Shown piece by piece: positions 38,505 to 55,358 of a stretch of 64,000 nucleotides of DNA. Every line of letters begins with the position of its first letter. The first letter of the stretch is position 1. Source of the DNA: Parcubacteria group bacterium. GTDB lineage: Bacteria > Patescibacteriota > Minisyncoccia > Moranbacterales > UBA2206. The stretch is taken from NCBI GenBank assembly GCA_041661275.1, contig JBAZUU010000004.1, positions 7,480 through 71,479 on the forward strand. Reading direction: 5' to 3'. The notes beneath the pieces were generated by a model that did no database searches, had not been told where the DNA came from, and was given only the letters and a program-made list of their open reading frames with translations. A program made the translations under genes and the position numbers.

Positions 38505-38565
38505 CGCGTAGCGTCATCCTGAGCGGAGTCCTGCTGAAAAGCAGGACGAAGTCGAAGGATCTAGT
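38505..38565. repeat. family A hairpin element, short form (half-unit), between rplW and rplB
   Basis: atgacgcgtagcgtcat palindrome + cgtcatcctgagcg + tcctgctgaaaagcagga hairpin + gaagtcgaaggatct. Confidence 0.8.
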
Positions 38566-38578
38566 ATAGGAAAATATT

Positions 38579-39412
38579 ATGGCAATTAAAGTATACAAAA
38601 GAAATACAGCCGGAAGACGCAATATGTCAGTTGTGAAAGTTGATTATGTGACGAAAGGCAAGCCGGAGAAATCACTTTTGGCTAAGATAAATGAAAAGGC
38701 CGGACGATCTCATGGAACTATTTCCGTCCGTCACCAGGGCGGTGGAGCCAAGAGACGATATCGAATGGTTGATTTCATGCAGGATAAGCTTGGTGTTCCG
38801 GGGAAGGTGGCGGCTATCGAAAAAGATCCGAACCGCAGCGGATTTATCGCTCTAGTGCATTACAAAGACGGAGAAAAAAGATACATTTTGGCTGTTGAAG
38901 GAATGCGAGCTGGACAGGAAATTGTAGCTGACCAAAATGCGCCGATAAAAATTGGAAACAGAGCTAAAGTTAAAAATATTCCAGTGGGAACTATCATTTC
39001 TAATGTCGAACTATTCCCAGGGCGTGGCGGACAAGCGGTGAGAAGCGCAGGATCAGGCGCTATGCTGACAGCAGTAGATGAAAAGATGGCGCAGATAAAA
39101 CTAGCATCAGGTGAAATTAGAATCGTGAGTATTGATTGCTACGCGACCATTGGACAGGTGAGCAATTTTGAACATAGCGCAGAAACTATCGGAAAAGCCG
39201 GAAGAAAAAGACATATGGGTGTGCGACCATCAGTGCGTGGATCAGCAATGAACCCAGTTGACCATCCACATGGCGGAGGTGAAGGAAGGCAAGGAATCGG
39301 CCTCAAGCATCCGAAAACTCCGTGGGGCAAACCGGCATTAGGAAAGAAAACCAGGAAGAAAAAGAAGTATAGTAATAAATTTATAATTAGCCGAAGACAG
39401 AAGAGGAAATAA
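38579..39412 (+). CDS. rplB: 50S ribosomal protein L2
   Basis: conserved L2 sequence. Confidence 0.95.
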   Translation: MAIKVYKRNTAGRRNMSVVKVDYVTKGKPEKSLLAKINEKAGRSHGTISVRHQGGGAKRRYRMVDFMQDKLGVPGKVAAIEKDPNRSGFIALVHYKDGEKRYILAVEGMRAGQEIVADQNAPIKIGNRAKVKNIPVGTIISNVELFPGRGGQAVRSAGSGAMLTAVDEKMAQIKLASGEIRIVSIDCYATIGQVSNFEHSAETIGKAGRKRHMGVRPSVRGSAMNPVDHPHGGGEGRQGIGLKHPKTPWGKPALGKKTRKKKKYSNKFIISRRQKRK

Positions 39413-39421
39413 TTTAAGTAT

Positions 39422-39760
39422 ATGACAAGAAGTTTGAAAAAAGGGCCATATATAGATGAAAGGCTCATCAAAAAAGTTAAGGATAAAAAGCCTGGAGATC
39501 GTACACCGATCAAGACTTGGGCGAGGGCGGCTGTCATTTCTCCTGAAATGGTAGGACATACCTTTGCTGTGCATAATGGAAAGATTTTTATTCCGGTTCT
39601 CGCGACAGAACAGATGGTGGGGCACAGGTTAGGAGAGTTTTCTGCGACCAGAAAATTTGTCCGGCACGGAGGAAAGATGCAGAAGGAACTGGAAATAGCG
39701 GCTAAGCAAAAAGAGGTGGAAGCGTCGAAAGCGACCAAGGCCGAACCGGCGAAGAAATAA
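39422..39760 (+). CDS. rpsS: 30S ribosomal protein S19
   Basis: conserved S19 with a K/E-rich C-terminal tail. Confidence 0.95.
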
Positions 39761-39761
39761 A

Positions 39762-39836
39762 TCGCATAACACATAACACATAACACATAACATCGGATTC
39801 GTATTTTGTTCCATGTTACGTGCTACGGGTTACGTG
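39762..39836. repeat. intergenic repeat family D (cataacacataac x4 ... gttccatgttacgtgctacgggttacgtg) abutting the rplV start
   Basis: same block structure as 29185-29260 and 62372-62451. Confidence 0.55.
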
Positions 39837-40412
39837 ATGAATATGAAAGTTACAGCAAAACTAGACAATTTGCGAATAGCTCCCAGAAAGACTAAGCTGG
39901 TGGCTGATCTCATCAAAGGACTCGACACGAAAGTGGCTCTTGATCAGTTGGATATGGAAGTAAAAAGAACTAGCCCCTATATGAAAAAATTGCTTTTAAG
40001 CGCTGTGGCTAACGCAGAAAATAATTTTGGTTTAGATAAGGACAATCTATACGTAGAAGATGTTGTTATCGGGGCAGGCCCGATACTCAAGCGTTGGATG
40101 CCAAGAGCCTATGGCCGCGCGGCGCAAATTTTGAAAAGAACATCAAAAATTACCATAGTTCTCGAAGAAAGAGTCGAAGGCAAAGGCCGAAAAACTAAGG
40201 AAGAGATGGCCAAGATTATGGAGAAAAGGCTGAAAGACAAGAAAAAGGAAGAAAAAGAACGGGCGGAAGTTGAAGGCAAGGAACCCGCCTCGACTCGTGG
40301 AGACGATCACTCGTCGATGCGAGGCGGGGAAAAAGAAACGGAAAATATCAAAAAAGACAGTGGTGGAGGAAAAAGCTGGGGGAGTAAGATATTCAGAAGA
40401 AAGTCGATGTAG
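39837..40412 (+). CDS. rplV: 50S ribosomal protein L22 with a long K/E/G-rich C-terminal extension
   Basis: KLDNLRIAPRKTKLVADLIKG core; about 80 extra C-terminal residues. Confidence 0.85.
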   Translation: MNMKVTAKLDNLRIAPRKTKLVADLIKGLDTKVALDQLDMEVKRTSPYMKKLLLSAVANAENNFGLDKDNLYVEDVVIGAGPILKRWMPRAYGRAAQILKRTSKITIVLEERVEGKGRKTKEEMAKIMEKRLKDKKKEEKERAEVEGKEPASTRGDDHSSMRGGEKETENIKKDSGGGKSWGSKIFRRKSM

Positions 40413-40417
40413 GTTTA

Positions 40418-40508
40418 GTTAAAAAGTAAAAAGTAAAAGTTAAAAGTAAAGAAAAAATTAAACAGCTTCAAATATTTTGGACTTTTAATTTTTAACTTTT
40501 AACTTGAG
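40418..40508. repeat. AT-rich palindrome (ttaaaaagtaaaaagtaaaagttaaaagt ... acttttaatttttaacttttaa) between rplV and rpsC
   Basis: inverted repeat read directly. Confidence 0.5.
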
Positions 40509-40518
40509 CGAAGCGAAC

Positions 40519-41181
40519 ATGGGAAATAAAGTAAATCCAGTCGGACTTCGAATAGGAATAACTCAAGGCTGGAAGTCCAAGTGGTTTTCTAAAAAAGAAT
40601 ATAAGACTAATCTGCGGCAGGATCTGGAAATCCGTACTTTCGTCATGAAAAAATGGAAGAACGCTTCTATCGCTGAAGTGGAAATAGAAAGATCAGCTGC
40701 GGCTGTCAGAATTATTATCAAGACTGCCCGTCCCGGAGTTCTGATTGGTCGGGGAGGAAGTGGTATTGAAGATGTCAAAAAGCAGCTTCAGGATAAGTTT
40801 TTCAAAAGTAACAAGAAGTTGAATTTAAAAATAGAAGTGCAGGAAGTGAAGAATTTTGAAGAATCCGCGCAGCTTGTTGCTCAAAACGTGGCAGAACAGT
40901 TGGAAAAAAGAATGCCATTCAGAAGAGTGTTGAAAAGCATGCTGGAACAAGTGATGAAGAATAACACAGTAAAGGGAGTGAAAATAGAAGTGGCGGGTCG
41001 GCTTGGTGGCGCTGAAATGTCCAGGCGTGAGTGGTCAGCCAAAGGAACATTGCCTCTGCACACTCTGCGCGCTGACATTGATTTTGCCAGAACTACCGGA
41101 TATACCACTTATGGGACGCTGGGAGTGAAAGTTTGGATATACAAAGGAGAAGTATTTAATAAAGTTAAGACTGAAAGATAA
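40519..41181 (+). CDS. rpsC: 30S ribosomal protein S3
   Basis: [14 protein letters not shown]... conserved. Confidence 0.95.
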
Positions 41182-41186
41182 AACCG

Positions 41187-41597
41187 ATGTTGATGCCCAA
41201 GAAAGTAAAACATAGAAAGATTCAACGAGGCGGAGCGATCCGCGGGAATGCTAATCGTGGAAACACTTTGAGCTTTGGCAGTTATGGCCTGAAATCGTTG
41301 GAAGCGGGACTAGTTTCTTCAAGACAAATTGAGGCATCACGTCGCGCTATGACCAGATATATCCAGCGTGGTGGAAAAATTTGGATTAGAATATTTCCGG
41401 ATAAGCCGATGACTAAAAAAGGTGATGAAACTCCGATGGGAAAAGGAAAAGGATCTGTCGATCATTTTGTGGCAGTAGTAAAACCCGGAAGAGTGGTATT
41501 TGAAATGGACGGAGTAAAGAAGGAAATTGCAGTGGAAGCAATGAGACTAGCGGCCTATAAATTAAATGTAAAGACGAAATTTATCAGCAAGGAATAA
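41187..41597 (+). CDS. rplP: 50S ribosomal protein L16
   Basis: [15 protein letters not shown] conserved. Confidence 0.95.
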
Positions 41598-41608
41598 AAT
41601 TAAAAAGC

Positions 41609-41797
41609 ATGAAAGTAAAAGAATTAAGAGAAAAAGGAATAGAGGAGCTCAAAAAGCTTTTAGCGGAAAAGAGAGAAATTGTCCGAAAAGCCAGATTTGA
41701 TATGGCAACGAAGCAGGTGAAAAATAACCGTCAGAAAAGAAATGAGAAGAGAGATATTGCCAGAATTATCACATTAATAAAAGAGAAGAAACAATAA
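41609..41797 (+). CDS. rpmC: 50S ribosomal protein L29
   Basis: MKVKELREKGIEELKKLLAEKREIVRKARF conserved. Confidence 0.85.
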   Translation: MKVKELREKGIEELKKLLAEKREIVRKARFDMATKQVKNNRQKRNEKRDIARIITLIKEKKQ

Positions 41798-41798
41798 T

Positions 41799-42041
41799 AT
41801 GGAAAAGAATAATAATATTAGTGCTAAGAAAAAAGGAATTGTTGTCAGTGACAAAATGGCCAAAACCATTGTTGTGGCCGTGACTGAATTCAAGACTCAT
41901 CCCAAGTACAAGAAAAAATACAAATCAACCAACAGATATAAGGTTCATGATGAAGATAATAAGTATAAAGTTGGGGATGTTGTCGAGATCGTCCCGACTA
42001 AACCGATGAGCAAGGAGAAATTTTATAAAGTGACGACGTAG
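41799..42041 (+). CDS. rpsQ: 30S ribosomal protein S17
   Basis: conserved S17 sequence. Confidence 0.9.
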
Positions 42042-42096
42042 TCGTCATCCTGAGCGAAGTCCTGCTGAAAAGCAGGATGAAGTCGAAGGATCTATA
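42032..42096. repeat. family A hairpin element, short form, between rpsQ and rplN
   Basis: tgacgacgtagtcgtca palindrome + cgtcatcctgagcgaagtcctgctgaaaagcaggatgaagtcgaaggatct; nearly identical to 38505-38565. Confidence 0.8.
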
Positions 42097-42103
42097 CAAA
42101 TAT

Positions 42104-42469
42104 ATGATACAAGCAGAATCAAAACTAGTCGTAGCTGATAATTCTGGTGCCAAGATCATCGAGTGTTTCAAGGTGCTTGGCGGTTCAAGAAGGCGATATG
42201 CTGGTCTGGGTGATGTTATCGTGGCTTCCGTAAAGTCATCAGAACCTCGCGGAACAGTCAAAAAAGGCGAGGTAGTGAAAGCGGTGATAGTGAGACAACG
42301 AAAGGAATTTAGAAGAAAAGATGGTTCATATATCCGATTTGATGAAAATGCAGCGGTAATTGTTGACGGGAAAGATCCAAAAGGAACAAGAATTTTTGGG
42401 CCTATCGCGCGAGAATTGCGAGACCGGGGATATAGCAAGATAATTTCACTCGCTCCGGAAGTATTGTAA
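42104..42469 (+). CDS. rplN: 50S ribosomal protein L14
   Basis: [17 protein letters not shown] conserved; the ORF-track ATG at 42077 lies inside the repeat element. Confidence 0.95.
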
Positions 42470-42470
42470 T

Positions 42471-42552
42471 CTTTACTAATTACTAATTTTGTAAGAATAT
42501 ACCGATTGCGAATAAAGATTAGTATATTAGTATAAGATTCGTAATTAGTAAA
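42471..42552. repeat. family C palindromic element (ctttactaattactaatt ... aattagtaaag) between rplN and rplX
   Basis: near-identical copy at 44176-44262. Confidence 0.75.
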
Positions 42553-42572
42553 GAATAATTCATATTAAATTC

Positions 42573-42875
42573 ATGAAGATAAAAAAGAACGATATCGTGA
42601 TAATGCTTTCAGGAAAAGACCGCGGAAAAACGGGCAAGGTTTTGCGAGTGGTTGAGAAAGGAAAGGTTACGGTAGAAAATTTAAATACAGTCAAAAAACA
42701 TAAACGTCCCAGACGAGAAGGAGAAAAAGGTCAGCGAGTAGAAATCCCGAGATTGGTAGATATATCAAAAGTAGCGCTTGTTTGTCCGAAATGCGGAAAA
42801 GCGACAAGGATCGGCTATAAAATTTCAGGAGAGATAAAATCAAGATTTTGTAAAAAGTGTAAGAGTGAGATATAA
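42573..42875 (+). CDS. rplX: 50S ribosomal protein L24 with a C-terminal CxxC...CxxC zinc-ribbon tail
   Basis: KOW motif MLSGKDRGKTGKV; C-terminal CPKCGK...CKKCK. Confidence 0.85.
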   Translation: MKIKKNDIVIMLSGKDRGKTGKVLRVVEKGKVTVENLNTVKKHKRPRREGEKGQRVEIPRLVDISKVALVCPKCGKATRIGYKISGEIKSRFCKKCKSEI

Positions 42876-42879
42876 AATA

Positions 42880-43422
42880 ATGGAAAATATTCGAGAAAAA
42901 TATTATAAAAAAGCCCTGCCGACAATGAAAAAAGAATTCGGGCTCAAAAATGACCTGGAAGTTCCTAGAATCACCAAGGTGGTTGTTAATACTGGAATAG
43001 GAAAATTTATCAAAGACTCTTCTTCTGTTGAGGAAATTCAAAAAGCCTTGACCGCTGTTACAGGACAAAAAGCGATAATGGTGAAAACCAGAAAGTCTAT
43101 TGCCGGATTCAAGACAAGAGCGGGACTGGAAGTGGGAGTGAAAGTGACTCTTCGTGGTCCTCGAATGTGGAGCTTTTTGGAAAAATTAGTCGGAGCTGCT
43201 ATGCCTCGCATCCGGGACTTCAGAGGAATTAAGCTGACATCAGTGGATAGCAATGGTAATTTAAACATTGGCCTCAAAGAACATACGATTTTTCCGGAAA
43301 TTTTGCCGGAGTCAGTGAAAAATATTTTCAGTTTGCAAGTGAATGTTACCACTAACGTAAGAAATAGAGATATGGGAATAGCATTATTTAGAAATTTAGG
43401 TTTTCCAATAGAGCATAAGTAA
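42880..43422 (+). CDS. rplE: 50S ribosomal protein L5
   Basis: conserved L5 sequence. Confidence 0.95.
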   Translation: MENIREKYYKKALPTMKKEFGLKNDLEVPRITKVVVNTGIGKFIKDSSSVEEIQKALTAVTGQKAIMVKTRKSIAGFKTRAGLEVGVKVTLRGPRMWSFLEKLVGAAMPRIRDFRGIKLTSVDSNGNLNIGLKEHTIFPEILPESVKNIFSLQVNVTTNVRNRDMGIALFRNLGFPIEHK

Positions 43423-43444
43423 TAAGAAATAGTTGTTAAATTTT

Positions 43445-43630
43445 ATGGCAAAGAAATCCGTAGAAGCAAGAGCAAGAAAAAAACCGAAATTCTCAACAAG
43501 AATAGTCAGGCGCTGTTGGAAGTGCGGAAGAAAACACGGTTATCTTCGTCAGTTTGACATTTGCCGGATTTGCTTTCGGGAATTAGCCAGTACCGGTCAG
43601 ATTCCGGGAGTAAAAAAGTCCTCATGGTAG
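43445..43630 (+). CDS. rpsN: 30S ribosomal protein S14 type Z (61 aa, zinc-binding)
   Basis: [20 protein letters not shown] conserved. Confidence 0.9.
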
Positions 43631-43742
43631 TCTACGAATTACGAATTAGTACGAATGTAACGAAATACGAATAGTAGTAAATGTGACAAAAGTTAAATTC
43701 AATTATTGTTCGTACATTCGTAAAGGTTCGTAATTCGTAGAC
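43631..43742. repeat. 112-bp palindromic element of family B between rpsN and rpsH
   Basis: arms identical to 30568-30677 with a different loop. Confidence 0.8.
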
Positions 43743-43769
43743 CAAGAGATTAAATTAAACTAATCAAAT

Positions 43770-44171
43770 ATGGATAAAATTGCAGAAATGCTAACATCAA
43801 TAAGGAACGCCCAGATGGCCGGGCACAAGGAAGCGAAAATAAGCGCCTCCAAGTTGAAGTTGGCCGTGGCCAAGATCCTGGAAAAAGAAGGCTTTTTAGA
43901 ATTTGCCAATGTGGAGCAGGAAAATAATTTCAATGTGATAAAGGTCGGGCTGAAATACCATACGATCTCCCGGACAAAAAGGCTGCCGGCGATAAACGGA
44001 TTGGAAAGGGTGAGTAAAGAAGGACAAAGAGTATATATAAAGAAAAAAGACATAAGAAATGTAAAAAATAATTACGGTTTAGCTATTATTTCCACTTCCA
44101 AGGGCGTAATGACCGGAGAAGAATCTAAAAAACTCGGCTTGGGAGGGGAATATATATGTAAAGTCTGGTAG
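43770..44171 (+). CDS. rpsH: 30S ribosomal protein S8
   Basis: conserved S8 sequence. Confidence 0.95.
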   Translation: MDKIAEMLTSIRNAQMAGHKEAKISASKLKLAVAKILEKEGFLEFANVEQENNFNVIKVGLKYHTISRTKRLPAINGLERVSKEGQRVYIKKKDIRNVKNNYGLAIISTSKGVMTGEESKKLGLGGEYICKVW

Positions 44172-44175
44172 TAAT

Positions 44176-44262
44176 TCTTTACTAATTACTAATTTTGTAC
44201 GAATATACCAATTACGAATAAAAAAATTAGTATATTAGTATAAGATTCGTAATTAGTAAAGA
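44176..44262. repeat. family C palindromic element between rpsH and rplF
   Basis: copy of 42471-42552. Confidence 0.75.
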
Positions 44263-44291
44263 AAGAAATTAACTAAAAATCAGGAAATTAT

Positions 44292-44846
44292 ATGAGCAAG
44301 ATCGGCAGAAAATTAATAACTATTCCAGAAGGCGTGGAAGTCAAGATTGATGGACAAGTTCTGGAGGCTAAAGGTTCAAAAGGAACACTGTCTTTGATCA
44401 TTAACTCAAAAGCAAAGGTGGAAATTGAAGGCAAAGAAATAAAAGTTACCAAAGGCGACCTCGATGATTCTTCCAGAGAATCGGGAGCGGTTTGGGGACT
44501 GACCCGGTCGCTGGTAAATAATATAATCATTGGTGTGTCTCAGGGTTACCAAAAAAAATTAGAACTGCAGGGAGTAGGCTTTCGGATGAGTGTTCAGGGA
44601 AAGAAAATTGTTTTGGCGCTCGGTTTTTCTCATCCGGTAGAAAAGGAGATTTCTGAAGGACTCGAGGCAAAAATAGAAGAAAATAATGTTTTGAGCATTA
44701 CTGGAATAGACAAGCAAAAAGTTGGCCAATTTGCGGCCGAAGTACGATCTTTGAAACCTGTCGAACCATACAAAGGAAAAGGATTTAGATATCAGGGAGA
44801 AAAAGTAAGAAGAAAAGCGGGAAAGAAAGCGGCCACCGCGAAATAA
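44292..44846 (+). CDS. rplF: 50S ribosomal protein L6
   Basis: conserved L6 sequence. Confidence 0.95.
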   Translation: MSKIGRKLITIPEGVEVKIDGQVLEAKGSKGTLSLIINSKAKVEIEGKEIKVTKGDLDDSSRESGAVWGLTRSLVNNIIIGVSQGYQKKLELQGVGFRMSVQGKKIVLALGFSHPVEKEISEGLEAKIEENNVLSITGIDKQKVGQFAAEVRSLKPVEPYKGKGFRYQGEKVRRKAGKKAATAK

Positions 44847-44849
44847 AAC

Positions 44850-44931
44850 GATGCTAATCCACGAATAAAGGCGAATCTGCTAATCGCTAATTCGCAATTA
44901 GCGGATTAGTATATATTAGCAGATTAGCATC
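44850..44931. repeat. nested palindrome (gatgctaatc...gattagcatc) between rplF and rplR, related to family C
   Basis: perfect outer 10-bp inverted repeat and an inner ctaatcgctaatt/aattagcggattag pair; shares the gattagtatatattag core with family C. Confidence 0.65.
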
Positions 44932-44944
44932 ACTTGAAAAAATT

Positions 44945-45289
44945 ATGAAAAATAGTAGAAACAATTTAAGACTCCATAGAAAAAGGCGCATTCGAGCCAA
45001 GGTTTCCGGTACGGCTAAAAAACCGAGACTGGCGGTCTTTAAGAGTCTTATGAGTATCGAAGCCCAACTGATCGATGATGCGAAAGGAATAACTTTGCTT
45101 CACAGTCACAGCAAGAATTTGAAGATTAAAAACGGTATCGAGGGAGCTAAAAAAGTTGGGACGGATATTGCTAAAAAAGCTCTCGCTAAAAAGATCACTG
45201 AAGCGGTTTTTGATAGAGGCGGATATAAATATCACGGAAAAGTAAAAGCGGTGGCGGAAGGCGCGCGAGAAGGTGGACTTAAGTTCTAA
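44945..45289 (+). CDS. rplR: 50S ribosomal protein L18
   Basis: conserved L18 sequence. Confidence 0.9.
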   Translation: MKNSRNNLRLHRKRRIRAKVSGTAKKPRLAVFKSLMSIEAQLIDDAKGITLLHSHSKNLKIKNGIEGAKKVGTDIAKKALAKKITEAVFDRGGYKYHGKVKAVAEGAREGGLKF

Positions 45290-45306: not shown

Positions 45307-45810
45307 ATGGCGAGAGACAATAGCAGAAAATTTAAGGGAAAAAGAGAAAAGCCGGAATTTGACCAGAAGCTTTTGGATTTGGCGCGCGTTACCCGTGTGG
45401 TCAAGGGCGGAAGACGTTTTCGTTTTCGAGCGACCTTGGTTATCGGCAATAAGCGCGGCAAAGTAGGTGTCGGAGTCGGGAAGGGTGGAGATGTTTCTGA
45501 TGCTATCAAAAAAGCCTATGATGACGCCAGAAAGCATATGGTTATTGTTCCTATGAAGGATAATACTATTGCTCATGATATTTTCCATAAGAAAGGAAGC
45601 GCCAAGATTATGTTGAAGCCTGCTCACAAAGGAAGAGGAATAGTGGCTGGCGGAGCGGTGCGCGCAGTGGTAGAGTTTTCCGGAATAAAGGATATTGTTT
45701 CGAAATCACTCGGAACATCAAATAAGATCAATGTGGCGAGGGCTACTATTGAAGCGTTAGAGATGCTTAATTATTCAAGACTAAGAAAAATAAATCAGGA
45801 AGGAAATTAG
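45307..45810 (+). CDS. rpsE: 30S ribosomal protein S5
   Basis: conserved S5 sequence. Confidence 0.95.
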   Translation: MARDNSRKFKGKREKPEFDQKLLDLARVTRVVKGGRRFRFRATLVIGNKRGKVGVGVGKGGDVSDAIKKAYDDARKHMVIVPMKDNTIAHDIFHKKGSAKIMLKPAHKGRGIVAGGAVRAVVEFSGIKDIVSKSLGTSNKINVARATIEALEMLNYSRLRKINQEGN

Positions 45811-45933
45811 TTTATTGGAAATCAAAAATTAGTTCCAGAAATTGGAAAAGGGAAAATAGAATTTCATCTTTCCAGTTTCTAATTTCCTGAACCATTTTCA
45901 AATTTCTATTAAACTATTTTCTAAAAAATAATT
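45811..45933. repeat. family F imperfect palindromic element between rpsE and rplO (where rpmD/L30 would normally sit)
   Basis: related to 25590-25735. Confidence 0.5.
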
Positions 45934-47642: not shown

Positions 47643-48293
47643 ATGAATATTGTTATTCTTGGTCCGCAAGGCAGCGGTAAAGATACGCAAGCGGAAAAAA
47701 TAGCGGAAAAATTCCATCTGGAAATCATTCATATGGGGAAGTTTTTGCGCGAAGTGGCGAAGCAGGATACGCCGCTTGGGAAAGAGGTGTATCATTACCA
47801 AAATGAGATAAACGAAATGGTGCCTTCACGGATTTTGAAAGAAGTTCTGCATATGAAAATTATGTCTTATTCCCGCGAGCAGGGAATTATGTTTGAGGGA
47901 GTGCCAAGAACTATGGATCAGGCTCTTTACTTTGATGAAGCAGTTTTGGAATCAGGCCGGAAGATCGATGCTGTAATCAACCTTAAATTGTCAGAGGAAG
48001 AAGCGGTCAAGCGAATTTCCATAAGAAGAATTTGTGAAAAATGCAAAAAACTATATATTTTAGGAAAAGATATAGAAGAGGGAGAAAATTGTCCTGATTG
48101 TGGTGGAAACATTATCCAGCGGATTGATGATACTGATGCGGGAATCAAAAAAAGACTAGAAGTATTCAATAAAGAAACTCTGCCGGTAATCGAGCATTAC
48201 AAAAAGAAAGGAAATCTGGTAGAAATAAACGGCGATCAATCGATCGAAAAAGTTTTTGAAGAAATTATTGGAAAATTAAAAAGCGTAGAGTAA
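47643..48293 (+). CDS. adk: adenylate kinase (zinc-lid form)
   Basis: GPQGSGKDTQ P-loop; LID with CxxC...CxxC. Confidence 0.9.
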   Translation: MNIVILGPQGSGKDTQAEKIAEKFHLEIIHMGKFLREVAKQDTPLGKEVYHYQNEINEMVPSRILKEVLHMKIMSYSREQGIMFEGVPRTMDQALYFDEAVLESGRKIDAVINLKLSEEEAVKRISIRRICEKCKKLYILGKDIEEGENCPDCGGNIIQRIDDTDAGIKKRLEVFNKETLPVIEHYKKKGNLVEINGDQSIEKVFEEIIGKLKSVE

Positions 48294-48436
48294 CCCGTCA
48301 TTCTGAGCGAAATGACGACGACGTTAGTCGGAGGAATGAAGTCGAAGAATCTGCCAAAAGTTAGCACTGGTGGTAATTTATAGTAGATCCTTCGACTACG
48401 TCCAATAAGAATTGGACTTCGCTCAGGATGACGTAT
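48294..48436. repeat. family A element, full-length (about 140-bp inverted duplication), between adk and map
   Basis: left arm cgtcattctgagcg...gaagtcgaagaatct; right arm agatccttcgactacgt...cgctcaggatgacg. Confidence 0.85.
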
Positions 48437-48440
48437 TATT

Positions 48441-49202
48441 ATGATTATTATTAAAACCCAGGAAGAAATAGAAAAAATGCGTGAAGGCGGGCATAAACTC
48501 GCCGAGATTATGGATGAGATTGGAAAAGCGGTTCGTCCCGGACAAAATACGCATGAAATTGATGAGCTCTCAAGACGGCTCATTTTTGATATCGGCGGTA
48601 TTCCCATTTTTGAAGGCTATGGAGGTCCCGAAAATCCCTATCCGGGCGCTGTCTGCGCGTCTATTAATCATGAGGTGGTTCATGGTATTCCCCGGAAGGA
48701 TAGAATTTTAAAAGAAGGTGATGTCTTGAAAATCGATATCGGGATGAAATACCGAAACCTCATCACTGATATGGCGCGCACATTTCCTGTCGGAAAAGTA
48801 TCGCCGGAGGCGTGGAAGCTGATGAAAGCGACGAGAGAGAGTCTGAACATGGGGATTAGCAAACTTAAAGCCGGTGCTAAATTGTCAGAGTATTCCCAGG
48901 CTGTCGAAAGTTATGTCCGCGCCAATGGATTTTCTGTCATTCGGGAACTGGTCGGGCACGGAGTGGGATATGAGCTTCACGAAGATCCGCAGATCCCTAA
49001 TTATACATCCAATGCGAAAGATATAATTTTGAAAGAAGGAATGACGCTGGCACTTGAACCGATGATAAACGTAGGGACAGAAAAGATAAAGTTGCAAAAA
49101 GACGGTTGGACATATGTGACGGCGGATGGAAAATTGTCCGCGCATTTTGAAGATACGATTGTCATAACTAAGGGCGGGGTGGAGATACTAACTAGAAAAT
49201 AA
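48441..49202 (+). CDS. map: methionine aminopeptidase type I
   Basis: conserved MetAP motifs. Confidence 0.9.
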   Translation: MIIIKTQEEIEKMREGGHKLAEIMDEIGKAVRPGQNTHEIDELSRRLIFDIGGIPIFEGYGGPENPYPGAVCASINHEVVHGIPRKDRILKEGDVLKIDIGMKYRNLITDMARTFPVGKVSPEAWKLMKATRESLNMGISKLKAGAKLSEYSQAVESYVRANGFSVIRELVGHGVGYELHEDPQIPNYTSNAKDIILKEGMTLALEPMINVGTEKIKLQKDGWTYVTADGKLSAHFEDTIVITKGGVEILTRK

Positions 49203-49341
49203 CCGTCATTCTGAGCGGAATCGAGTCCGTTAGGACGAGATGAAGTCGAAGAATCTGCCAAAGGTTAGCACTTGTGGTAAATTATAGTAGATCCTTCGAC
49301 TACGTTCGGATAAAATCCTCACTACGCTCAGGATGACGGGA
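49203..49341. repeat. family A element, full-length
   Basis: central region nearly identical to 48294-48436 (gccaaaggttagcacttgtggtaaattatagta). Confidence 0.85.
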
Positions 49342-49432
49342 AAAAGAGAATAAAAAAACACCCGGGAGTTTCCACGATTACGATGTAACGTGTGAAAACC
49401 CGCCGGGGTAGATGGTTTTCCGCCGTGAAATT

Positions 49433-49816
49433 TCAACGGCGATTCCAATATGGAGGTCGAGGGACGCTGTGAGTTATCTCGCATCCGTCAGGGAATACAA
49501 GAGTAACATCATCGCAGGGTATTGGGGATTTCGGCCAAGGCATTGGCTTTCTCCATTGTCCAGTAAGATTTTCCCACCAGACATTTCTCTTTAAGAACGA
49601 CCCCCATCTGGTGAGTTGATAGATCACCACGAGACCGCCCACGATTCCGGGCAGTAATTTTACGATAATCGGCCACGTTGCGACATCGGGTGAAGTGAAT
49701 GCCTCCCAGGAGATCTTCACAAAATAGATGCCCAACAGAACGACTCCAAATTCTACCCAGAATCCCTCATCTTTGCTTTCTTTAATGTGCTGATTTTTTT
49801 TCACTGATTCCTCCAA
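49433..49816 (-). CDS. hypothetical membrane protein
   Basis: 127-aa minus-strand ORF with two hydrophobic helices. Confidence 0.4.
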   Translation of the reverse strand: MEESVKKNQHIKESKDEGFWVEFGVVLLGIYFVKISWEAFTSPDVATWPIIVKLLPGIVGGLVVIYQLTRWGSFLKRNVWWENLTGQWRKPMPWPKSPIPCDDVTLVFPDGCEITHSVPRPPYWNRR

Positions 49817-49918
49817 GCATGTGGTTAAAACCGTTAAAACTTGTGAAAATCAGAACCGATCTCTCATCTGCCAACTAACCTACTATTATACTACAATTAT
49901 CACAAAAAATCAATACCT

Positions 49919-50380
49919 ATGTCAAATGAGCCTGAAATAAGCCACATTTTGGGGGTAGATTATGGCCGAGCCAAAATTGGCCTGGCCATGGCCGACAGTG
50001 AGACTCGGATGGCTTTTGTCTATGGGACAATTGAAAATAACAAGGGATTATTTCGAAAACTGGCGGAAATCATCGAAAAAGAGGGCGTAACAAAAGTGAT
50101 TGTTGGCGTGCCCGGGTTTAGGAATCAGGGAGATGAGGCTCGCCTCGATTCGACGAGACGCCTCATCGAGTCGAAGCGGGGTAATCAGGAGATTTATAGG
50201 GGGTTTGGCGAAACGCTTAGGAAAAATTTACCCGGAGTAGAAATTGTTTTTGTTGATGAAATGTTTACTACCAAGATGGCGCAGGACAATCTGAAAGAGA
50301 CGGGAATGAAAAATATTCAGAGGTCAGATGACAAGGAAGCAGCGAGGATAATTTTGCAGAGCTGGCTAGATTCTAAATAA
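49919..50380 (+). CDS. ruvX: Holliday-junction resolvase-like nuclease YqgF/RuvX
   Basis: ILGVDYGRAKIGLAMAD N-terminus and VIVGVPGF motif. Confidence 0.7.
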   Translation: MSNEPEISHILGVDYGRAKIGLAMADSETRMAFVYGTIENNKGLFRKLAEIIEKEGVTKVIVGVPGFRNQGDEARLDSTRRLIESKRGNQEIYRGFGETLRKNLPGVEIVFVDEMFTTKMAQDNLKETGMKNIQRSDDKEAARIILQSWLDSK

Positions 50381-50516
50381 CACCGTCATTCCGAGCGGAA
50401 TCCGCTTTAAGCGGATGAAGTCGAAGAATCTGCTAATTAATATTACTAGTGCTATTTGTAAGTAGATCCTTCGACTTCGTTCGGATAAAATCCTCACTTC
50501 GCTCAGGATGACGGGC
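50381..50516. repeat. family A element, full-length
   Basis: same arms as the other full-length copies; loop differs. Confidence 0.85.
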
Positions 50517-50591
50517 CTATTGTATGTTTTGAAAAAACACGAATTATGTTACAATTGAACTACGAAATAACCATTAATCATATAAAAGAAA

Positions 50592-51359
50592 ATGGAAAAT
50601 AAACCATATCTGTCTGTTGTCTTCTCTGCGTACAATGAGGGTGGCAGAAAAGGAGAGGAATTAAGAAAAAATCTTGAAGAAATAGGAAAATATTTAGGAG
50701 AAAAACAAATCTCCTATGAAGTTGTCGCGATAAATGACGGGTCAAAAGACAACACCGTAGAGGTTTTGAAAGAACTCTCTCCTTTGGTTAGCAAGCTGGA
50801 AATTATTGATCGCAAAGAAAATAGAGGAAAATGGTATTCTTTGCGTGAAGGATTTTTAAAAGCCAGGGGAAAATATAGATTATTGGTAGATGCTGATGGA
50901 GCAACATCGATCACTAATATGGAAGGTTTTTGGTCACACATGGAAAAAGGGGAAGATATTATCATTGGATCAAGGGATTTAAGTGAATCAAAAATAGAAA
51001 AACATCAACCAAGATGGAAAGAGATTATGGGCGATGCTGGCAACCTGCTCATCCAATTTATGCTAGGACTTCGAGGGATAAAAGACACTCAATGCGGTTT
51101 CAAGGTAATTTCCGAAAAAGCAACAAATGATATTATTACTCGAATGAAAGTGGATAGATGGGGCGGGGATTTTGAAATGATGGCTCTCGCTCGGAAGCTT
51201 GGATATAAATTTGTGGAAGTGCCGGTAGTTTGGGTGGATGCCGGCCAGAGCTTGGTTGGAGCAAAGGGTCTCGGTGGTTACGGCTCAACTCTCAAAGAGC
51301 TTTTTCAGGTGAAGCTGAATATGATGATGGGTAGATACCATCTACATAAGAAACAATAA
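50592..51359 (+). CDS. family-2 glycosyltransferase (dolichyl/polyprenyl-phosphate sugar transferase-like)
   Basis: LSVVFSAYNEG, VVAINDGSKDNT, LVDADG (DxD) motifs. Confidence 0.75.
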   Translation: MENKPYLSVVFSAYNEGGRKGEELRKNLEEIGKYLGEKQISYEVVAINDGSKDNTVEVLKELSPLVSKLEIIDRKENRGKWYSLREGFLKARGKYRLLVDADGATSITNMEGFWSHMEKGEDIIIGSRDLSESKIEKHQPRWKEIMGDAGNLLIQFMLGLRGIKDTQCGFKVISEKATNDIITRMKVDRWGGDFEMMALARKLGYKFVEVPVVWVDAGQSLVGAKGLGGYGSTLKELFQVKLNMMMGRYHLHKKQ

Positions 51360-51521
51360 AAAAGCGAGAAACCCCGCACCAAATTCCAGTATAGATTTGC
51401 TTAGTGTATAGTTGAGTGTGCGTGGTCGCCTGCGGCTTAAAATAGAAATAAAAAATAGTCTTTCGAGCGAATTGGTGCGGGGTCTCATTTTTGTAACCAC
51501 TCGCCAAGCTCGCGGACAAAA

Positions 51522-52541
51522 ATGGAAAAGGAGACAAAAAAACAAAAAAATTCAGAGCTGCGCCAAGATATTGTGACGGGGGATTGGGTGGTAATTTCTA
51601 CCGCTCGAGCCAAACGTCCGAAAGAGTTTGCGGAACATGGGCGTGAGCCGGTCATTGAAGATCCGGACAAGGTTTGCATTTTCTGTCATCCGGAGGAAAC
51701 CGGACAGGAAAAAGATGTTTTGATATACCAAAACGCGGATGGCGACTGGAGTCTTCGCGTTATTCCCAATAAATTTCCGGCTTTTTCCCGTCCTGTTGGC
51801 GGGCTTATGAAACATAAAGAGGAGGGACCGTATTTTCATATGGATGCTATCGGTTATCATGAAATTATCATCACCCACGACCATAAGAAGTCGTTGGCGC
51901 AATTGGATAAATATCGCGCAGCCGAAGTTGTTGACGCTTACCAGGACAGGTACATCGATCTCATGAATAAAAAGAGCGTCAACTATATCGAGATTTTTCA
52001 CAATCATGGCAAGGAAGCGGGAGCTTCTGTCGGTCATCCGCATTCACAATTAGTGGCTATTCCCGTCATCTCGCCATATATCAAGGGCGAGCTGGACGGC
52101 GCGGAAGAATATCATAAAATGAACAAAGCTTGCGTCTATTGCGCGATGCTCGAGTGGGAACTGGAACATAAAAAAAGAATAATTTTTGAAAACGATTCAT
52201 TTGTCGCTTTTTGTCCTTTCTCCTCGCGTGCGGCATTTGAAGTCTGGGTGATGCCCAAAAAACATAAACCATATTTTGAAAGGACGTCAGTTGACGACAA
52301 AGTACTGGCGGGAGAAACATTGCAGGTGGCGCTTAGCAAAATTTTCAAGGGATTAAATGACCCGCCATATAATTTTTATATGCACACCGCGCCCTGCGAC
52401 GGCAAAGATTATCCACATTACCACTGGCATATAGAGATTTTGCCGAGAATGTCCACATGGGCAGGGCTGGAATATTCAACCGGCATTGAAATCTCAACTA
52501 TTGAACCGGAGGAAGCGGCCAAGTTTCTAAGAGAGAATTAA
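51522..52541 (+). CDS. galT: galactose-1-phosphate uridylyltransferase
   Basis: CxxC zinc site CIFCHPEE and HPHSQL active-site motif. Confidence 0.8.
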   Translation: MEKETKKQKNSELRQDIVTGDWVVISTARAKRPKEFAEHGREPVIEDPDKVCIFCHPEETGQEKDVLIYQNADGDWSLRVIPNKFPAFSRPVGGLMKHKEEGPYFHMDAIGYHEIIITHDHKKSLAQLDKYRAAEVVDAYQDRYIDLMNKKSVNYIEIFHNHGKEAGASVGHPHSQLVAIPVISPYIKGELDGAEEYHKMNKACVYCAMLEWELEHKKRIIFENDSFVAFCPFSSRAAFEVWVMPKKHKPYFERTSVDDKVLAGETLQVALSKIFKGLNDPPYNFYMHTAPCDGKDYPHYHWHIEILPRMSTWAGLEYSTGIEISTIEPEEAAKFLREN

Positions 52542-52542
52542 C

Positions 52543-53022
52543 ATGCACGATTTTATTATCAATCTTTTTACCGGCTTCCCAAAAGAGCTGGCTACATTTC
52601 TCATAGCTATCATTCCTGTCACGGAACTGCGAGCGGCCTTGCCGTTGGCCTATAAAGTTTATGGACTTTCCGCTTTCTGGTCATGGTTCTATTCTGTTGC
52701 CGGCACTTTTTTTGCCATGGTAATAATTGTCATTCTTTTGGATCCGATAGCTCAATTTTTATCAAAATATATAGGATTTTTTAGGAAATTCTTTGAGTGG
52801 CTGTTTGAACATACGAGGCGCCGTGCTAATGGGAAAATGGAAAAATATGGAGAATGGGCTATTTTTATTCTGGCGGCAACACCTATTCCGCTTTTGGGCG
52901 GAATGACAGGAGCGCTCGCGGCTTTTGTTTTCGGAGTTCCCTTGAAAAAGTCGCTCCCGTTGCTATTATTTGGTACAATAGTATCAGGTCTAATCGTATT
53001 GGGTATCACGGTATATTTATAA
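52543..53022 (+). CDS. small membrane protein (COG2426-like putative small multidrug-export protein)
   Basis: 159 aa, 4-5 TM helices. Confidence 0.4.
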   Translation: MHDFIINLFTGFPKELATFLIAIIPVTELRAALPLAYKVYGLSAFWSWFYSVAGTFFAMVIIVILLDPIAQFLSKYIGFFRKFFEWLFEHTRRRANGKMEKYGEWAIFILAATPIPLLGGMTGALAAFVFGVPLKKSLPLLLFGTIVSGLIVLGITVYL

Positions 53023-53025
53023 ATT

Positions 53026-53790
53026 ATGGATAAATTAGTTGTTGGAAATATGAAGATGAACTTATTGTCTCCCGTTGAACGCGAGAGATACCTTGAGAAT
53101 TTCAAAAAAGAATTAGGAACAAAAAAATTCGGGAGAACAGAACTGATTCTTTGTCCTTCATACGTCCATCTCGAAAATTTTAAAAAGGAATTGGGAAAAA
53201 AAGTTAATATTGGAGCGCAAAATATGTTTTGGAAAAAAGAAGGCGCGTTTACCGGAGAGATATCGCCGGTTATGATAAAAAATCTCGGTTGTGATTATGT
53301 AATTATCGGGCACAGTGAAAGAAGAAAATATTTTTGCGAAACAGACGAGGAAATAAATTGCAAAATAATCGAAGCTTTGAAAATCGGACTTAAACCTATA
53401 GTATGCGTAGGGGAATCAAGCGTGGAAAAGGATATGAATGAAACTCTCAATGTGATTACCAGGCAATTGAACGAATCCCTGGCTAATATTGGTCGGACAA
53501 AAATAGAAAATATTACCATTGTCTATGAGCCGGTTTGGGCGGTGGGAACGGATGATATTCCGACAATTCACGAAATTATGGAAGCCAGACTCCTCATCCG
53601 AAAAATCCTGGTGGCTAATTTTGACAAAAAATACGCCCAGAACGTAAAAATACTCTATGGCGGATCAGTAAACTCTAAAACAGTGAAAGAAGTTTGTATC
53701 GAACCGGGAATGGATGGAGTGTTGATAGGGCGGGAGAGCTTAATACCGTATGAACTTATTAAAATAGCTCAAATTATTAATGAAGGATAA
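53026..53790 (+). CDS. tpiA: triosephosphate isomerase
   Basis: VVGNMKMN..., IIGHSERR, GESS, YEPVWAVGTD, YGGSVN motifs. Confidence 0.85.
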   Translation: MDKLVVGNMKMNLLSPVERERYLENFKKELGTKKFGRTELILCPSYVHLENFKKELGKKVNIGAQNMFWKKEGAFTGEISPVMIKNLGCDYVIIGHSERRKYFCETDEEINCKIIEALKIGLKPIVCVGESSVEKDMNETLNVITRQLNESLANIGRTKIENITIVYEPVWAVGTDDIPTIHEIMEARLLIRKILVANFDKKYAQNVKILYGGSVNSKTVKEVCIEPGMDGVLIGRESLIPYELIKIAQIINEG

Positions 53791-53914
53791 CAGGTTTAAA
53801 ATTTTTGAATTTTTAATTTTATAATTTTGTAAATAAATCCAAATTTTTAATGTTTAAACATTTGGAAATTAAAAATTATTTAAAAATTAAAAATTACAAA
53901 ATTAAAAATTTTGT
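53791..53914. repeat. AT-rich palindromic spacer between tpiA and fba, centred on gtttaaac
   Basis: inverted repeats of aaaattaaaaatt-type words. Confidence 0.5.
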
Positions 53915-54781
53915 ATGATAACTTCAGTCAAAGAAATATTAACTAAAGCCAGAGAAGGTGGTTATGCCGTCGGGGCTTTTAATACGGTCAACTTGGAAAC
54001 AACGCGTGCCATCGTTGAAGCGGCGCAGGAAATGAGATCGCCGGTCATCATTCAGATCACCGAGAAAACTATGGAATATGCCGGAGGACGGCTCATATAC
54101 CATTTAGTTAAGAATGACGCGGAATTCTATGCTCCGGAAATTCCCATTGGCATTCATCTGGATCATGGAAGGAGTTTTGAAATAATCCAACGGGCTGTTG
54201 CTATCGGTTTCACATCCGTCATGTATGACGGATCAAGAAAAAAATATGAGGATAATTTGGAGATTACCAAAAAGGTAGTTGATTTTTGCAAGGAAAAGGG
54301 CGTTAATGTTCAGGCGGAACTAGGGAGTGTGCCATATCTTGGTGAAATGGGAATGGGGGAAGTAAATTGGGAAGAATATATGACCGATCCTGGTCAAGCC
54401 AGTGCTTTTGTCAAAGAAACCGGAATTGATGCGTTGGCAGTGGCTATCGGCAACGCTCATGACTTTTTCAAAGAAAAAGAAGTCCCTGATTATGCCAGAC
54501 TGGAAATGATAAACAAAAATTGCGGGAATCTTCCACTTATCCTTCATGGGGCATCAGACTGGGAAAATGGGCGGGTAAAAGAAGTAATAAACCGAGGAGT
54601 GGCTTGTTTTAATGTGGACACGGCTATCCGGTTGTCTTTTATAAATAATCTTATCAATTCAGTCCGGAATCAGGGCAATGTATCCTTTGATATCAGAAAG
54701 CTCCTGGGGGAATCGAGAGATGCTGTGAAAGATATAGTGAAGAAAAAAATAAAGTTTTTTGGAAGTGACGGAAAAATATGA
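53915..54781 (+). CDS. fba: class II fructose-bisphosphate aldolase
   Basis: GGYAVGAFN..., IHLDHG, ILHGASD motifs. Confidence 0.8.
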   Translation: MITSVKEILTKAREGGYAVGAFNTVNLETTRAIVEAAQEMRSPVIIQITEKTMEYAGGRLIYHLVKNDAEFYAPEIPIGIHLDHGRSFEIIQRAVAIGFTSVMYDGSRKKYEDNLEITKKVVDFCKEKGVNVQAELGSVPYLGEMGMGEVNWEEYMTDPGQASAFVKETGIDALAVAIGNAHDFFKEKEVPDYARLEMINKNCGNLPLILHGASDWENGRVKEVINRGVACFNVDTAIRLSFINNLINSVRNQGNVSFDIRKLLGESRDAVKDIVKKKIKFFGSDGKI

Positions 54782-55221
54782 TGACGGTTGAGAAAATATT
54801 ATTAGAGTTTGATCCAGAAATAAAAAATCTTCTGCCGGCGCTGAAAAAGATCAGCGCTGGTTTTGGCTATATCTCACAAAATGACGCCCAAAAATTGGCT
54901 GAATATTTTTCTGTCCCACTTTCTCGCGTTTTTGAAACGGCATCTTTTTATGATGAGATAAAAACTAAAAAGCAACCCGACCTGGTTATTCAAGTATGTT
55001 CCAGTGTCAATTGCGCAGTGAGTAAGTCTTTTGAAATAGTGAGTAAAATAGAAGATTATTTTAAGATAAAGGCGGGAGACGAGTTTGATCAGAAAGTAAG
55101 ATTGGAAGTGATGAGTTGCTTGGGGCAGTGCGGGGAAGGGCCGGTAGTGGTTGTTAATGATAAAGTATATACTAATGTGACAAAAAGTTCGGTGGCGGGG
55201 GTTTTGGAAGAGTGGGCATAG
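54778..55221 (+). CDS. hoxE: NuoE/HoxE-like [2Fe-2S] thioredoxin-fold subunit
   Basis: CSSVNC...C...CLGQCGEGP cysteine pattern; 4-bp overlap with the fba stop. Confidence 0.6.
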   Translation: MMTVEKILLEFDPEIKNLLPALKKISAGFGYISQNDAQKLAEYFSVPLSRVFETASFYDEIKTKKQPDLVIQVCSSVNCAVSKSFEIVSKIEDYFKIKAGDEFDQKVRLEVMSCLGQCGEGPVVVVNDKVYTNVTKSSVAGVLEEWA

Positions 55222-55358
55222 CGTCGTCATTCTGAGCGGAATGAGACCTTTGGTCGAATGAAGTCGAAGAATCTACCAAATAATATTACCGGTGATAATT
55301 CCTGGTAGATCCTTCGACTACGTCCCAATAAGAATTGGGACTTCGCTCAGGATGACGG
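55222..55358. repeat. family A element, full-length, between hoxE and hoxF
   Basis: arms identical to the other copies. Confidence 0.85.

Follow-up and report, generated by a model that had tools for sequence, protein, structure and literature searches.

Family A elements in the window

The DNA analysed here, called the window throughout, is a 64,000-nucleotide stretch of a Parcubacteria group bacterium genome (assembly GCA_041661275.1, contig JBAZUU010000004.1, positions 7,480 to 71,479), and its intergenic spacers contain a dispersed palindromic repeat termed Family A. Ten copies of a 48–57-nt unit, CGTCATYCTGAGCG-variable hairpin-G(A/T)AGTCGAAGRATCT, are distributed over six elements, all of them intergenic: two units stand alone as singlets, and the other eight are arranged as four inverted pairs, each with its CGTC ends facing outwards and a 32-nt spacer between the units (Table 1). 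The neighbouring genes, confirmed with Pfam, are rplW, rplB, rpsQ, rplN, adk, map, ruvX and a family-2 glycosyltransferase (GT2), while HoxE/HoxF-like subunits of a NiFe hydrogenase cluster flank dimer 4 and a hypothetical gene (hyp) lies on the minus strand between map and ruvX. A first-pass annotation, made from the sequence alone, had described a dispersed hairpin family inserted in operons right after stop codons, and both the scans and the gene context bear this out as a real family; its coordinates are right within 2–7 nt, and the arm consensus, the mini-hairpins and two near-identical spacers (48353-48384 and 49257-49288) had been read correctly. It had counted six copies of a 140-bp element, half-units included; the repeated module is instead a ~50-nt self-folding unit present in 10 copies, and the 140-bp form is a head-to-head heterodimer of two such units, reminiscent of a REPIN (a doublet of repetitive extragenic palindromic, REP, sequences).

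The conserved boxes CGTCATYCYGAGCG and GAAGTCGAAGRATCT each occur 10 times in the window, where chance predicts 0.79 and 0.51 occurrences, and 0/100 shuffles reach 10. A regular-expression scan and a covariance-model scan (model R1, filters off) agree on the same 10 units, all with E <= 8e-12 in the latter, the next match standing at E ~0.5. The copies are not an assembly artefact, because they differ in their inner hairpins and because two of the elements recur at orthologous sites in the independently assembled related locus L091.

The distance from the upstream stop codon to the pair is 2 nt for adk, 1 nt for map and 3 nt each for ruvX and the hoxE-like gene, in agreement with the 1–3 nt originally claimed for every copy, whereas the mini-hairpins that precede the singlets, in which the CGTC(A) tag pairs with (T)GACG on its 5' side, overlap the stop codons of rplW (TGA) and rpsQ (TAG). 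The further claim that each copy ends just before the next start holds at four sites, where the gap is 16, 10, 7 and 20 nt, but fails at map/hyp (94 nt, towards a convergent gene) and at ruvX/GT2 (78 nt). The singlets found in genomes of the Candidate Phyla Radiation (CPR) are all co-oriented with transcription, and the orientation bias of units relative to open reading frames (ORFs) is modest once the TGA of the unit itself is discounted. A run of six T follows directly after dimer 4.

Table 1 Family A elements and other palindromic repeats in the window
Feature	Position	Strand	Details
5' mini-hairpin of singlet 1, TGACGC-GTA-GCGTCA	38502..38516	+	Pairs the CGTC tag; holds rplW stop TGA 38502-38504; from sequence, RNA and DNA folds
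Unit 1, singlet, rplW/rplB spacer	38512..38562	+	Covariance model 65.6 bits; P1 ATCCT/AGGAT; P2 GTCCTGC-TGAAAA-GCAGGAC
5' mini-hairpin of singlet 2, TGACGAC-GTA-GTCGTCA	42031..42047	+	Overlaps last rpsQ codons and TAG stop 42039-42041
Unit 2, singlet, rpsQ/rplN spacer	42043..42093	+	Regular-expression and covariance-model scans; rplN start 42104
Head-to-head dimer 1, adk/map spacer	48296..48433		48296-48352(+), spacer 48353-48384, 48385-48433(-)
Head-to-head dimer 2, after map, convergent with hyp	49204..49338		49204-49256(+), spacer 49257-49288, 49289-49338(-)
Head-to-head dimer 3, ruvX/GT2 spacer	50384..50513		50384-50431(+), spacer 50432-50463 (with TAATATTAC), 50464-50513(-)
Head-to-head dimer 4, hoxE-like/hoxF-like spacer	55225..55357		55225-55274(+), spacer 55275-55306 (with TAATATTAC), 55307-55357(-)
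Other palindromic repeats	30567-30690, 43630-43742, 42467-42557, 44174-44263, 44850-44931, 53795-53912; 25627-25705 vs 45803-45887		

Structure and covariation of the unit

From 5' to 3' the unit reads CGTC, ATYCT, GAGCG-N-A, a variable hairpin, G-N-AGTCGA, AGRAT and CT. The ATYCT and AGRAT segments form helix P1, the variable inner hairpin is helix P2, and an invariant purine-rich internal loop lies between them. The left units of the four pairs carry the P1 version ATTCT/AGAAT, one of them as ATTCC/AGAAT, while the right units and the singlets carry ATCCT/AGGAT. Left and right units thus differ in P1 and yet each is internally complementary, which means that selection or copying preserves the fold of the unit and not the long hairpin that a pair could form. 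The same observation removes an earlier argument for selection at the RNA level, which had taken the T/C and A/G differences between the arms as G-U pairing kept on one strand: the differences are compensatory within each unit, and the long hairpin would contain one G-U pair and one A-C mismatch on either strand, so that no strand-specific selection is shown.

P2 is wholly different between units yet always pairs, with tandem G-A/A-G at its positions 3-4 in ~1/4 of all units. Covariation was followed in an alignment to model R1 of 150 units (149 distinct) from the window, its relatives and metagenomes; because the model itself shaped this alignment and the copies are mutually related, the values are to be read within those bounds, with pairing in the 149 distinct units of 99.5% for P1 and 90% for P2, both-sided changes at 12/12 base pairs and 0/500 column shuffles reaching the observed covariation. 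Sliding the 3' partners by 1–3 columns lowers pairing from 94.6% to 23–54%. The 13 bases of the internal loop (GAGCG.A and G.AGTCGA) are invariant, and the invariance extends to 41 units, mostly partners, that lie outside the exact pattern of the metagenome scan and were retrieved by a model built on the same boxes. Judged from base identities, the loop can stack as G-A, A-G, G-C, a bulged U, C-G, G-A, N-N and A-G, and would then be an irregular rod and not an open loop.

The tag is CGTC in 10/10 units of the window, and among the 150 aligned units its first position is C in 137 and T in 13, with G2, T3 and C4 near-invariant; in folds of both singlets and dimers the tag can pair with a nearby GACG. 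The stem opens with A5-U80 (145/149) and U6-A79 (148/149) and contains five Watson-Crick pairs followed by G-A, A-G and G-C, which amounts to eight stacked positions only if the tandem sheared G-A pairs are counted. The region that it encloses is 31–45 nt long and holds the nested, covarying P2, while hairpin-less relatives of the unit have a 6-nt loop, CGAAGT. The tail consists of C and then T (148 and 145 of 150), followed by A, G or T. The tetranucleotide GTAG is found only inside box B of some units, as part of G(A/T)AGTC. Family A units are demonstrably under constraint of both sequence and structure.

Predicted folding of the elements

As RNA, each pair is predicted to fold into a four-way junction made of an outer stem that joins the two A boxes, two P2 hairpins and a central stem formed by the B boxes and the spacer. 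The predicted energies on the plus strand are -60.6 to -66.2 kcal/mol with z of -7 to -10, dimer 1 reaching -66.2 kcal/mol (z = -9.9). The minus strand gives -53 to -65.5 kcal/mol, and as single-stranded DNA both strands also fold well. Fold quality is therefore similar on both strands, for RNA and for DNA, and does not tell the two apart.

Near the tip of the central hairpin, 2/4 dimer spacers contain the nonanucleotide TAATATTAC (50438-50446 and 55281-55289), which occurs four times in the window against 0.5 expected, in copies that are related to one another and of which relatives carry variants. It resembles the nonanucleotide nicked by the HUH Rep proteins of some single-stranded-DNA viruses. 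As it is shared by descent among the copies and varies in relatives, it is not used here as evidence of a HUH nick site.

Gain and loss among related genomes

Syntenic CPR loci were recovered through homologues of Map (L091, L092, L205 and L206), and the P0005 contig was compared by gene coordinates only. The Map protein of the window has a 100% identical counterpart in a 'Parcubacteria group' MAG, and the next closest proteins are those of Moranbacteria, which places the source among CPR bacteria; an exact look-up of the sequence gave no record, and homologues served for the comparison. Identity of Map to the protein of the window is 90% in L091, 89% in L092, 86% in the P0005 contig, 77% in L205 and 76% in L206. 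L091 has the rpsQ/rplN singlet and the adk/map pair and is without the rplW/rplB, map, ruvX and hoxE elements; its hoxE and hoxF genes overlap. It also carries a unit at rplB/rpsS, where the window has a 9-nt spacer without any element, and L206 has a dimer of its own at hoxU/hypC, a junction that is empty in the window. The site of unit 1 is empty in L091 and L206. At adk/map, the site of dimer 1, the gap is 18 nt in L205, 2 nt in L206 and 5 nt in the P0005 contig. Dimer 2 is missing from its site in L091, L092 and L205. Nothing occupies the site of dimer 3 in L091 and L205, repeats of other, unrelated kinds are found there in L092 and L206, and at the site of dimer 4 the genes overlap or lie 2–15 nt apart in L091, L205 and L206. 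The mini-hairpin of singlet 2 is found in L091 and is absent from L206, whose S17 ends differently.

Family A elements are thus gained or lost at different intergenic sites among closely related CPR genomes, and the comparison of filled and empty sites gives ancestral spacers of 2–20 nt. This accounts for the placement next to stop and start codons, since an insertion into a spacer of 2–20 nt cannot lie elsewhere. The empty sites that the first-pass annotation had suggested looking for are therefore present, together with filled sites in relatives that are empty in the window. Target-site duplications, for which it had proposed inspecting the boundaries, are visible at no element boundary; none of the four dimers has a direct repeat in its flanks, and no duplication appears in the filled-versus-empty comparisons at rplW/rplB, rplB/rpsS, adk/map and ruvX/GT2.

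Synteny also bears on the segment between dimers 2 and 3, which had been pictured as bracketed by two copies. The hyp-ruvX arrangement is present in L091, L092 and L205, and ruvX is likewise placed in L206, in each case without flanking units, so that a composite element mobilising hyp-ruvX is rejected.

The window and L091 share 90% identity over the adk/map dimer, compared with 82% for the adjoining map coding DNA and 71% for that of adk, and the P2 of the dimer has diverged by substitutions that compensate one another and by an insertion that is itself paired. Such a pattern is expected under purifying selection, and equally if other members of the family served as templates for homogenisation. 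In the rpsQ/rplN singlets of the same two genomes the P2 stems are entirely different and still pair, again through compensatory change.

L092 contains no Family A, and its adk/map spacer holds a related doublet with GTCATTACGAG/GTCATTGCGAG boxes. This sister-family doublet (L092 2726-2826) reads GTCATTACGAGCGAAGCGAAGTAATCTC ... GAGATTGCC-hairpin-CCTCGCAATGACA and has the GTCAT...ATC frame of Family A but other P1 and loop sequences.

Distribution beyond the window

Scanning one genome per species with a pattern in which the P1 triplets were left free located the boxes with a P2 hairpin in Eggerthellaceae, Clostridia, Fibrobacter succinogenes and metagenome-assembled genomes (MAGs) of Terriglobia, the boxes in Bacteroidetes MAGs too, and a longer composite of the unit in many Acidobacteriota. 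The Acidobacteriota composite (L001-L090, for example L006, L011 and L040) has the form GTCATCCCGAGCG-hairpin-AGCGAGAGCCTGCCCTGAGCGAAGTCGAAGGGGATC, whose outer P1 encloses another core, CCCT-GAGCGAAGTCGA-AGGG, that lacks a hairpin. The hairpin-less core also occurs head to tail in tandem 22-nt arrays, (GTCATCCTGAGCGAAGTCGAAG)n, in L005, L033 (a Gracilibacteria MAG) and L070 (Flavobacterium sp.).

Among the matches listed for metagenomes, units lie in contigs of 29–73% GC, and the 29 specified bases of the unit are identical across this whole range. The same matches show the P1 variants ATTCT/AGAAT, ACCCT/AGGGT, ATCCC/GGGAT, ATTCC/GGAAT and GTCCT/AGGAC, and comprise 27 head-to-head, one tail-to-tail and one head-to-tail dimers; beside many apparent singlets the covariance model reveals further, diverged head-to-head partners. 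The 32-nt spacer recurs in L091, L099, L143, L171 and L206. Certain P2 sequences turn up in more than one CPR-like contig, L099, L142 and L180 among them, which fits subfamilies that spread by copying. Since the scans used the boxes themselves, the identity across phyla is in part an ascertainment effect, but exact matches are strikingly numerous and widespread all the same. The family is accordingly not confined to six sites with neither a mobility signature nor structural conservation, one of the outcomes that would have refuted the first-pass annotation: it is widely distributed, covaries over 149 units and is gained and lost in relatives.

Units are also present in 76 IMG/VR contigs. One of these (L239, IMG/VR 3300031555_011079) encodes endolysin, portal, scaffold, major head, tape-measure, tail and terminase proteins. 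Between its tailed-phage structural genes lie eight head-to-head heterodimers of a short form of the unit, for example at 711-830, 1138-1251, 4229-4350 and 4894-5013, and each dimer forms part of a longer spacer that is itself repeated and contains AAATGATCGTTTA / AAACGATCATTT motifs. BLAST searches of PLSDB plasmids and INPHARED cultured phages with a unit returned chance matches only.

Search for a mobilising enzyme or a known family

All-against-all clustering of the ORFs within 2–2.5 kb of units in ~200 genome and metagenome loci identified no recurrent family beyond local synteny groups, and among the viral loci the recurring ORFs are those of phage structural proteins only; across ~280 flanking loci no transposase-like ORF recurs. 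Pfam detects no transposase in the unit-dense loci L013 and L017, nor in the window among 50 ORFs scanned, mostly the larger and repeat-region ones, a selection that left out ~30 smaller or ribosomal-operon ORFs. A tblastn search of 2.1 Mb of flanks for Y1 transposases with an IS200 TnpA query, which is a weak test, gave no match.

Neither the window nor 16 related loci match an Rfam family at the gathering score, and a search of 48200-50600 at E <= 10 gives only noise. A literature search for the box sequences returned chance primer matches only. Several known motifs were compared by eye and rejected: the hammerhead (core CUGANGA...GAAA), twister and pistol, of which no consensus match was seen; the k-turn, there being no 3-nt bulge beside the tandem G-A; the integron attC site, the GTTRRRY/RYYYAAC boxes being absent; and boxA.

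Other repeats and features of the window

Other palindromic families unrelated to Family A (TACGAAT-rich, TTACTAAT-rich and AT-only) fill further spacers of ribosomal-protein and neighbouring operons, and intergenic hairpin repeats are a general feature of the source genome. Short tandem or direct repeats of the ATAACGCATAACG type lie in three spacers of the window (29178-29223, 39761-39792 and 62376-62407), and a similar, CGTAACGCATAACG-rich block fills the ruvX/GT2 spacer of L092 (4661-4760). A minus-strand hairpin with a T-run at 49345-49420, conserved in L091, L092 and L205, separates hyp (49433-49816) from dimer 2 and is probably the intrinsic terminator of that gene. Elsewhere in the window the last 65 nt of rpoC are duplicated with 98% identity (16989-17053 and 18326-18390); the duplicates flank an ORF for an AAA_14/DUF4143 ATPase (17185-18318), next to which lies a PemK/MazF-like toxin ORF (18461-18877). 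The region looks like a cassette that entered the 3' end of rpoC and regenerated the end of the gene.

Interpretation

Family A is best read, with a probability of roughly 55%, as a non-autonomous REP/REPIN-like repeat, a variant of the CGTC-tagged REP superfamily that is co-transcribed as a very stable hairpin. A single-copy enzyme acting in trans would recognise the folded unit on single-stranded DNA and copy units into new sites, by analogy with the way in which REP-associated tyrosine transposases (RAYTs), Y1 enzymes of the HUH class, act on GTAG-tagged REPs. With ancestral spacers of 2–20 nt, the insertions that survive would sit between a stop codon directly upstream and a start codon a short way downstream. 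The inserted elements would then be co-transcribed within operons and would form very stable RNA structures, with -60 to -66 kcal/mol predicted for the dimers. If the REPs of Escherichia coli are a guide, these structures would most likely be barriers to 3' exonucleases, or stall terminating ribosomes, or both, and the barrier or stalling could tune the relative expression of neighbouring cistrons.

Several observations weigh against this reading. Described CGTC families have loops of 4–5 nt, whereas Family A has a structured loop of 31–45 nt with 13 invariant unpaired bases. The case for transposition comes from presence and absence only, and precise deletion or recombination could yield an identical pattern. 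The mobilising enzyme was not found in the 64 kb of genome inspected. RNA and DNA folds of either strand are about equally good, and the counts of G-T against A-C in P2, ~30 to 15, form only a weak asymmetry. Finally, boxes that are identical across contigs of 29–73% GC and in phage contigs are more conserved than is usual for lineage-specific REPs, and this cross-phylum conservation could point to a function of the motif itself.

The last point leads to the main rival, which appears doubtful: that the unit serves first of all as a structured RNA with a function, or as a single nucleic-acid motif that is catalytic or bound by a protein, with the invariant internal loop as its active or recognised part and dispersal as a secondary matter, for example through phages or recombination. 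An intercistronic processing site, a ribozyme or a site for a conserved RNA-binding protein would be possible forms of it. Two freely covarying helices around 13 invariant, nominally unpaired purine-rich bases are the pattern of a functional RNA; 29 specified bases are kept through contigs of 29% to 73% GC and over wide taxa, the unit is more conserved than the flanking coding DNA, the CPR singlets all share the orientation of transcription, and in the tailed-phage structural operon the intergenic placement is dense. Against these stand the lack of any Rfam match even at E <= 10, the lack of a hammerhead, twister, pistol or k-turn consensus by eye, and the geometry of the dimers, which puts one unit antisense and would leave half of the units non-functional as RNA, both strands folding equally well. 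Close relatives may have or lack the element in essential operons, which speaks against a cis-regulator that is indispensable, and the cross-phylum identity is inflated to some extent by the way the units were collected. The REP-like reading remains the preferred one.

A broader proposition, which is put forward tentatively and which we regard as rather unlikely, is that the ~50-nt unit is an undescribed and very widely distributed functional nucleic-acid module, extending from CPR to Acidobacteriota, Firmicutes, Actinobacteria, Fibrobacteres and tailed phages. Were it true, the conservation would reflect either an RNA activity (a processing site or something ribozyme-like) or one conserved enzyme that mobilises CGTC-type repeats; with only about a thousand genes to a CPR genome, phylogenetic profiling could lead to such an enzyme.

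Ordinary intrinsic terminators or attenuators that share sequence by chance are a very improbable alternative. The elements are strong hairpins just past stop codons and the hoxE/hoxF dimer is followed by six T, but a T-run accompanies 1/6 elements only, the terminator scan flags none of them, terminator-like sites in the region are not above shuffles, elements lie in ribosomal-protein operons, where read-through is required, and relatives lack them at identical junctions. Least probable of all are classical miniature inverted-repeat transposable elements (MITEs), deletion derivatives of a DDE-type insertion sequence moved by cut-and-paste in the manner of Correia elements, with which the first-pass annotation had compared the family: the size of ~140 bp, the inverted ends, the intergenic location and the differential presence among relatives would all suit them, but no target-site duplication is seen at the six elements or in filled-versus-empty comparisons, the supposed arms are complete self-folding units and not terminal inverted repeats, they also occur singly or in other arrangements and with different P1 versions left and right, and no transposase-like ORF recurs in the ~280 flanking loci.

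REP-type repeats are among the commonest non-coding elements of bacteria, and their CGTC branch is without a known mobilising enzyme or a tested function. As a variant of that branch, Family A would extend it to the tiny, gene-poor genomes of CPR and to phage contigs, and its information-rich unit, an invariant loop with a variable hairpin, makes a sharp search model. The filled and empty sites in ribosomal-protein operons indicate that insertions are tolerated in the most conserved gene clusters. Should an enzyme or an RNA function behind the loop be found, it would explain a motif that recurs across many phyla, together with many spurious small ORFs in metagenomes; otherwise Family A still represents a clean example of REP-like elements shaping the operon spacers of CPR.

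Comparison with known repeat systems

Correia elements, the MITEs of Neisseria, are bounded by 26-bp terminal inverted repeats, duplicate a TA target and contain a site for integration host factor (IHF). Family A resembles them in size (Correia elements are 100–155 bp), in its inverted ends, in gene-adjacent insertion and in the proposed co-transcription as a hairpin RNA; none of the 26-bp terminal inverted repeats, the TA duplication or the IHF site is seen in it, and its arms are self-folding units.

The REPs and bacterial interspersed mosaic elements (BIMEs) of E. coli are likewise hairpins near stop codons inside operons, although they differ from Family A in their GTAG tag, in sequence, in being simple hairpins and in having a known RAYT partner. 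Roles in mRNA stabilisation and translation stalling have been proposed for them (PMC12306157, PMC3733652), and E. coli REPs at <=15 nt from a stop codon stall ribosomes and lower translation (as summarised in PMC12306157).

REPINs are inverted REP pairs associated with RAYT transposases (Bertels & Rainey 2011, PMC3116915; PMC3337134). Family A shares with them two inverted REP-like hairpins with a fixed spacer (32 nt), the coexistence of singlets and doublets, a non-autonomous nature, the absence of a target duplication and hairpin subtypes that recur across genomes. In REPINs, by contrast, the tag is GTAG and the RAYT gene is itself flanked by REPs, whereas in Family A the tag is CGTC, and neither the scanned ORFs of the window nor 2.1 Mb of flanks yielded a RAYT or Y1 gene.

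Two REP superfamilies are distinguished, GTAG-tagged and CGTC-tagged (Di Nocera, De Gregorio & Rocco 2013, PMC3733652). CGTC REPs have an unpaired end CGTC (sometimes TGTC, with TGTC/CCTC allowed as a criterion), a 3-nt tail of consensus CCA, uninterrupted stems of 8–9 bp that nearly always start with complementary A-T residues, and loops of 4–5 nt (PMC3733652). They are mostly head-to-head dimers, frequently heterodimers, with spacers of 20–100 bp, and are found no more than 20 bp past the end of an ORF, where the neighbouring genes are co-directional or convergent, with no dedicated transposase (PMC3733652). They have been reported in Proteobacteria, Chlorobi, Bacteroidetes, Spirochaetes and Thermotogae, and the superfamily includes dRS3 of Neisseria and the Rickettsia palindromic elements (RPEs) RPE-4 and RPE-6 (PMC3733652). 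The comparison with RPEs made in the first reading therefore pointed the right way, as RPE-4 and RPE-6 belong to the very superfamily that Family A resembles (PMC3733652), even though its elements are not inserted in frame: RPEs are placed inside protein-coding genes, while Family A is intergenic, coding sequence being touched only at the final codons of rpsQ, by the mini-hairpin of singlet 2. Relative to CGTC REPs, Family A departs clearly in loop size and arguably in stem length, its tail CT(A/G), though short, is similar and not identical to CCA, and its hosts (CPR, Acidobacteriota, Firmicutes, Actinobacteria, Fibrobacteres and phage contigs) differ from the phyla of that study. It agrees with them in the CGTC tag, in a stem that starts with A-T and T-A pairs, in the predominance of head-to-head dimers with common heterodimers, in having no transposase nearby and in a position right after the ends of ORFs.

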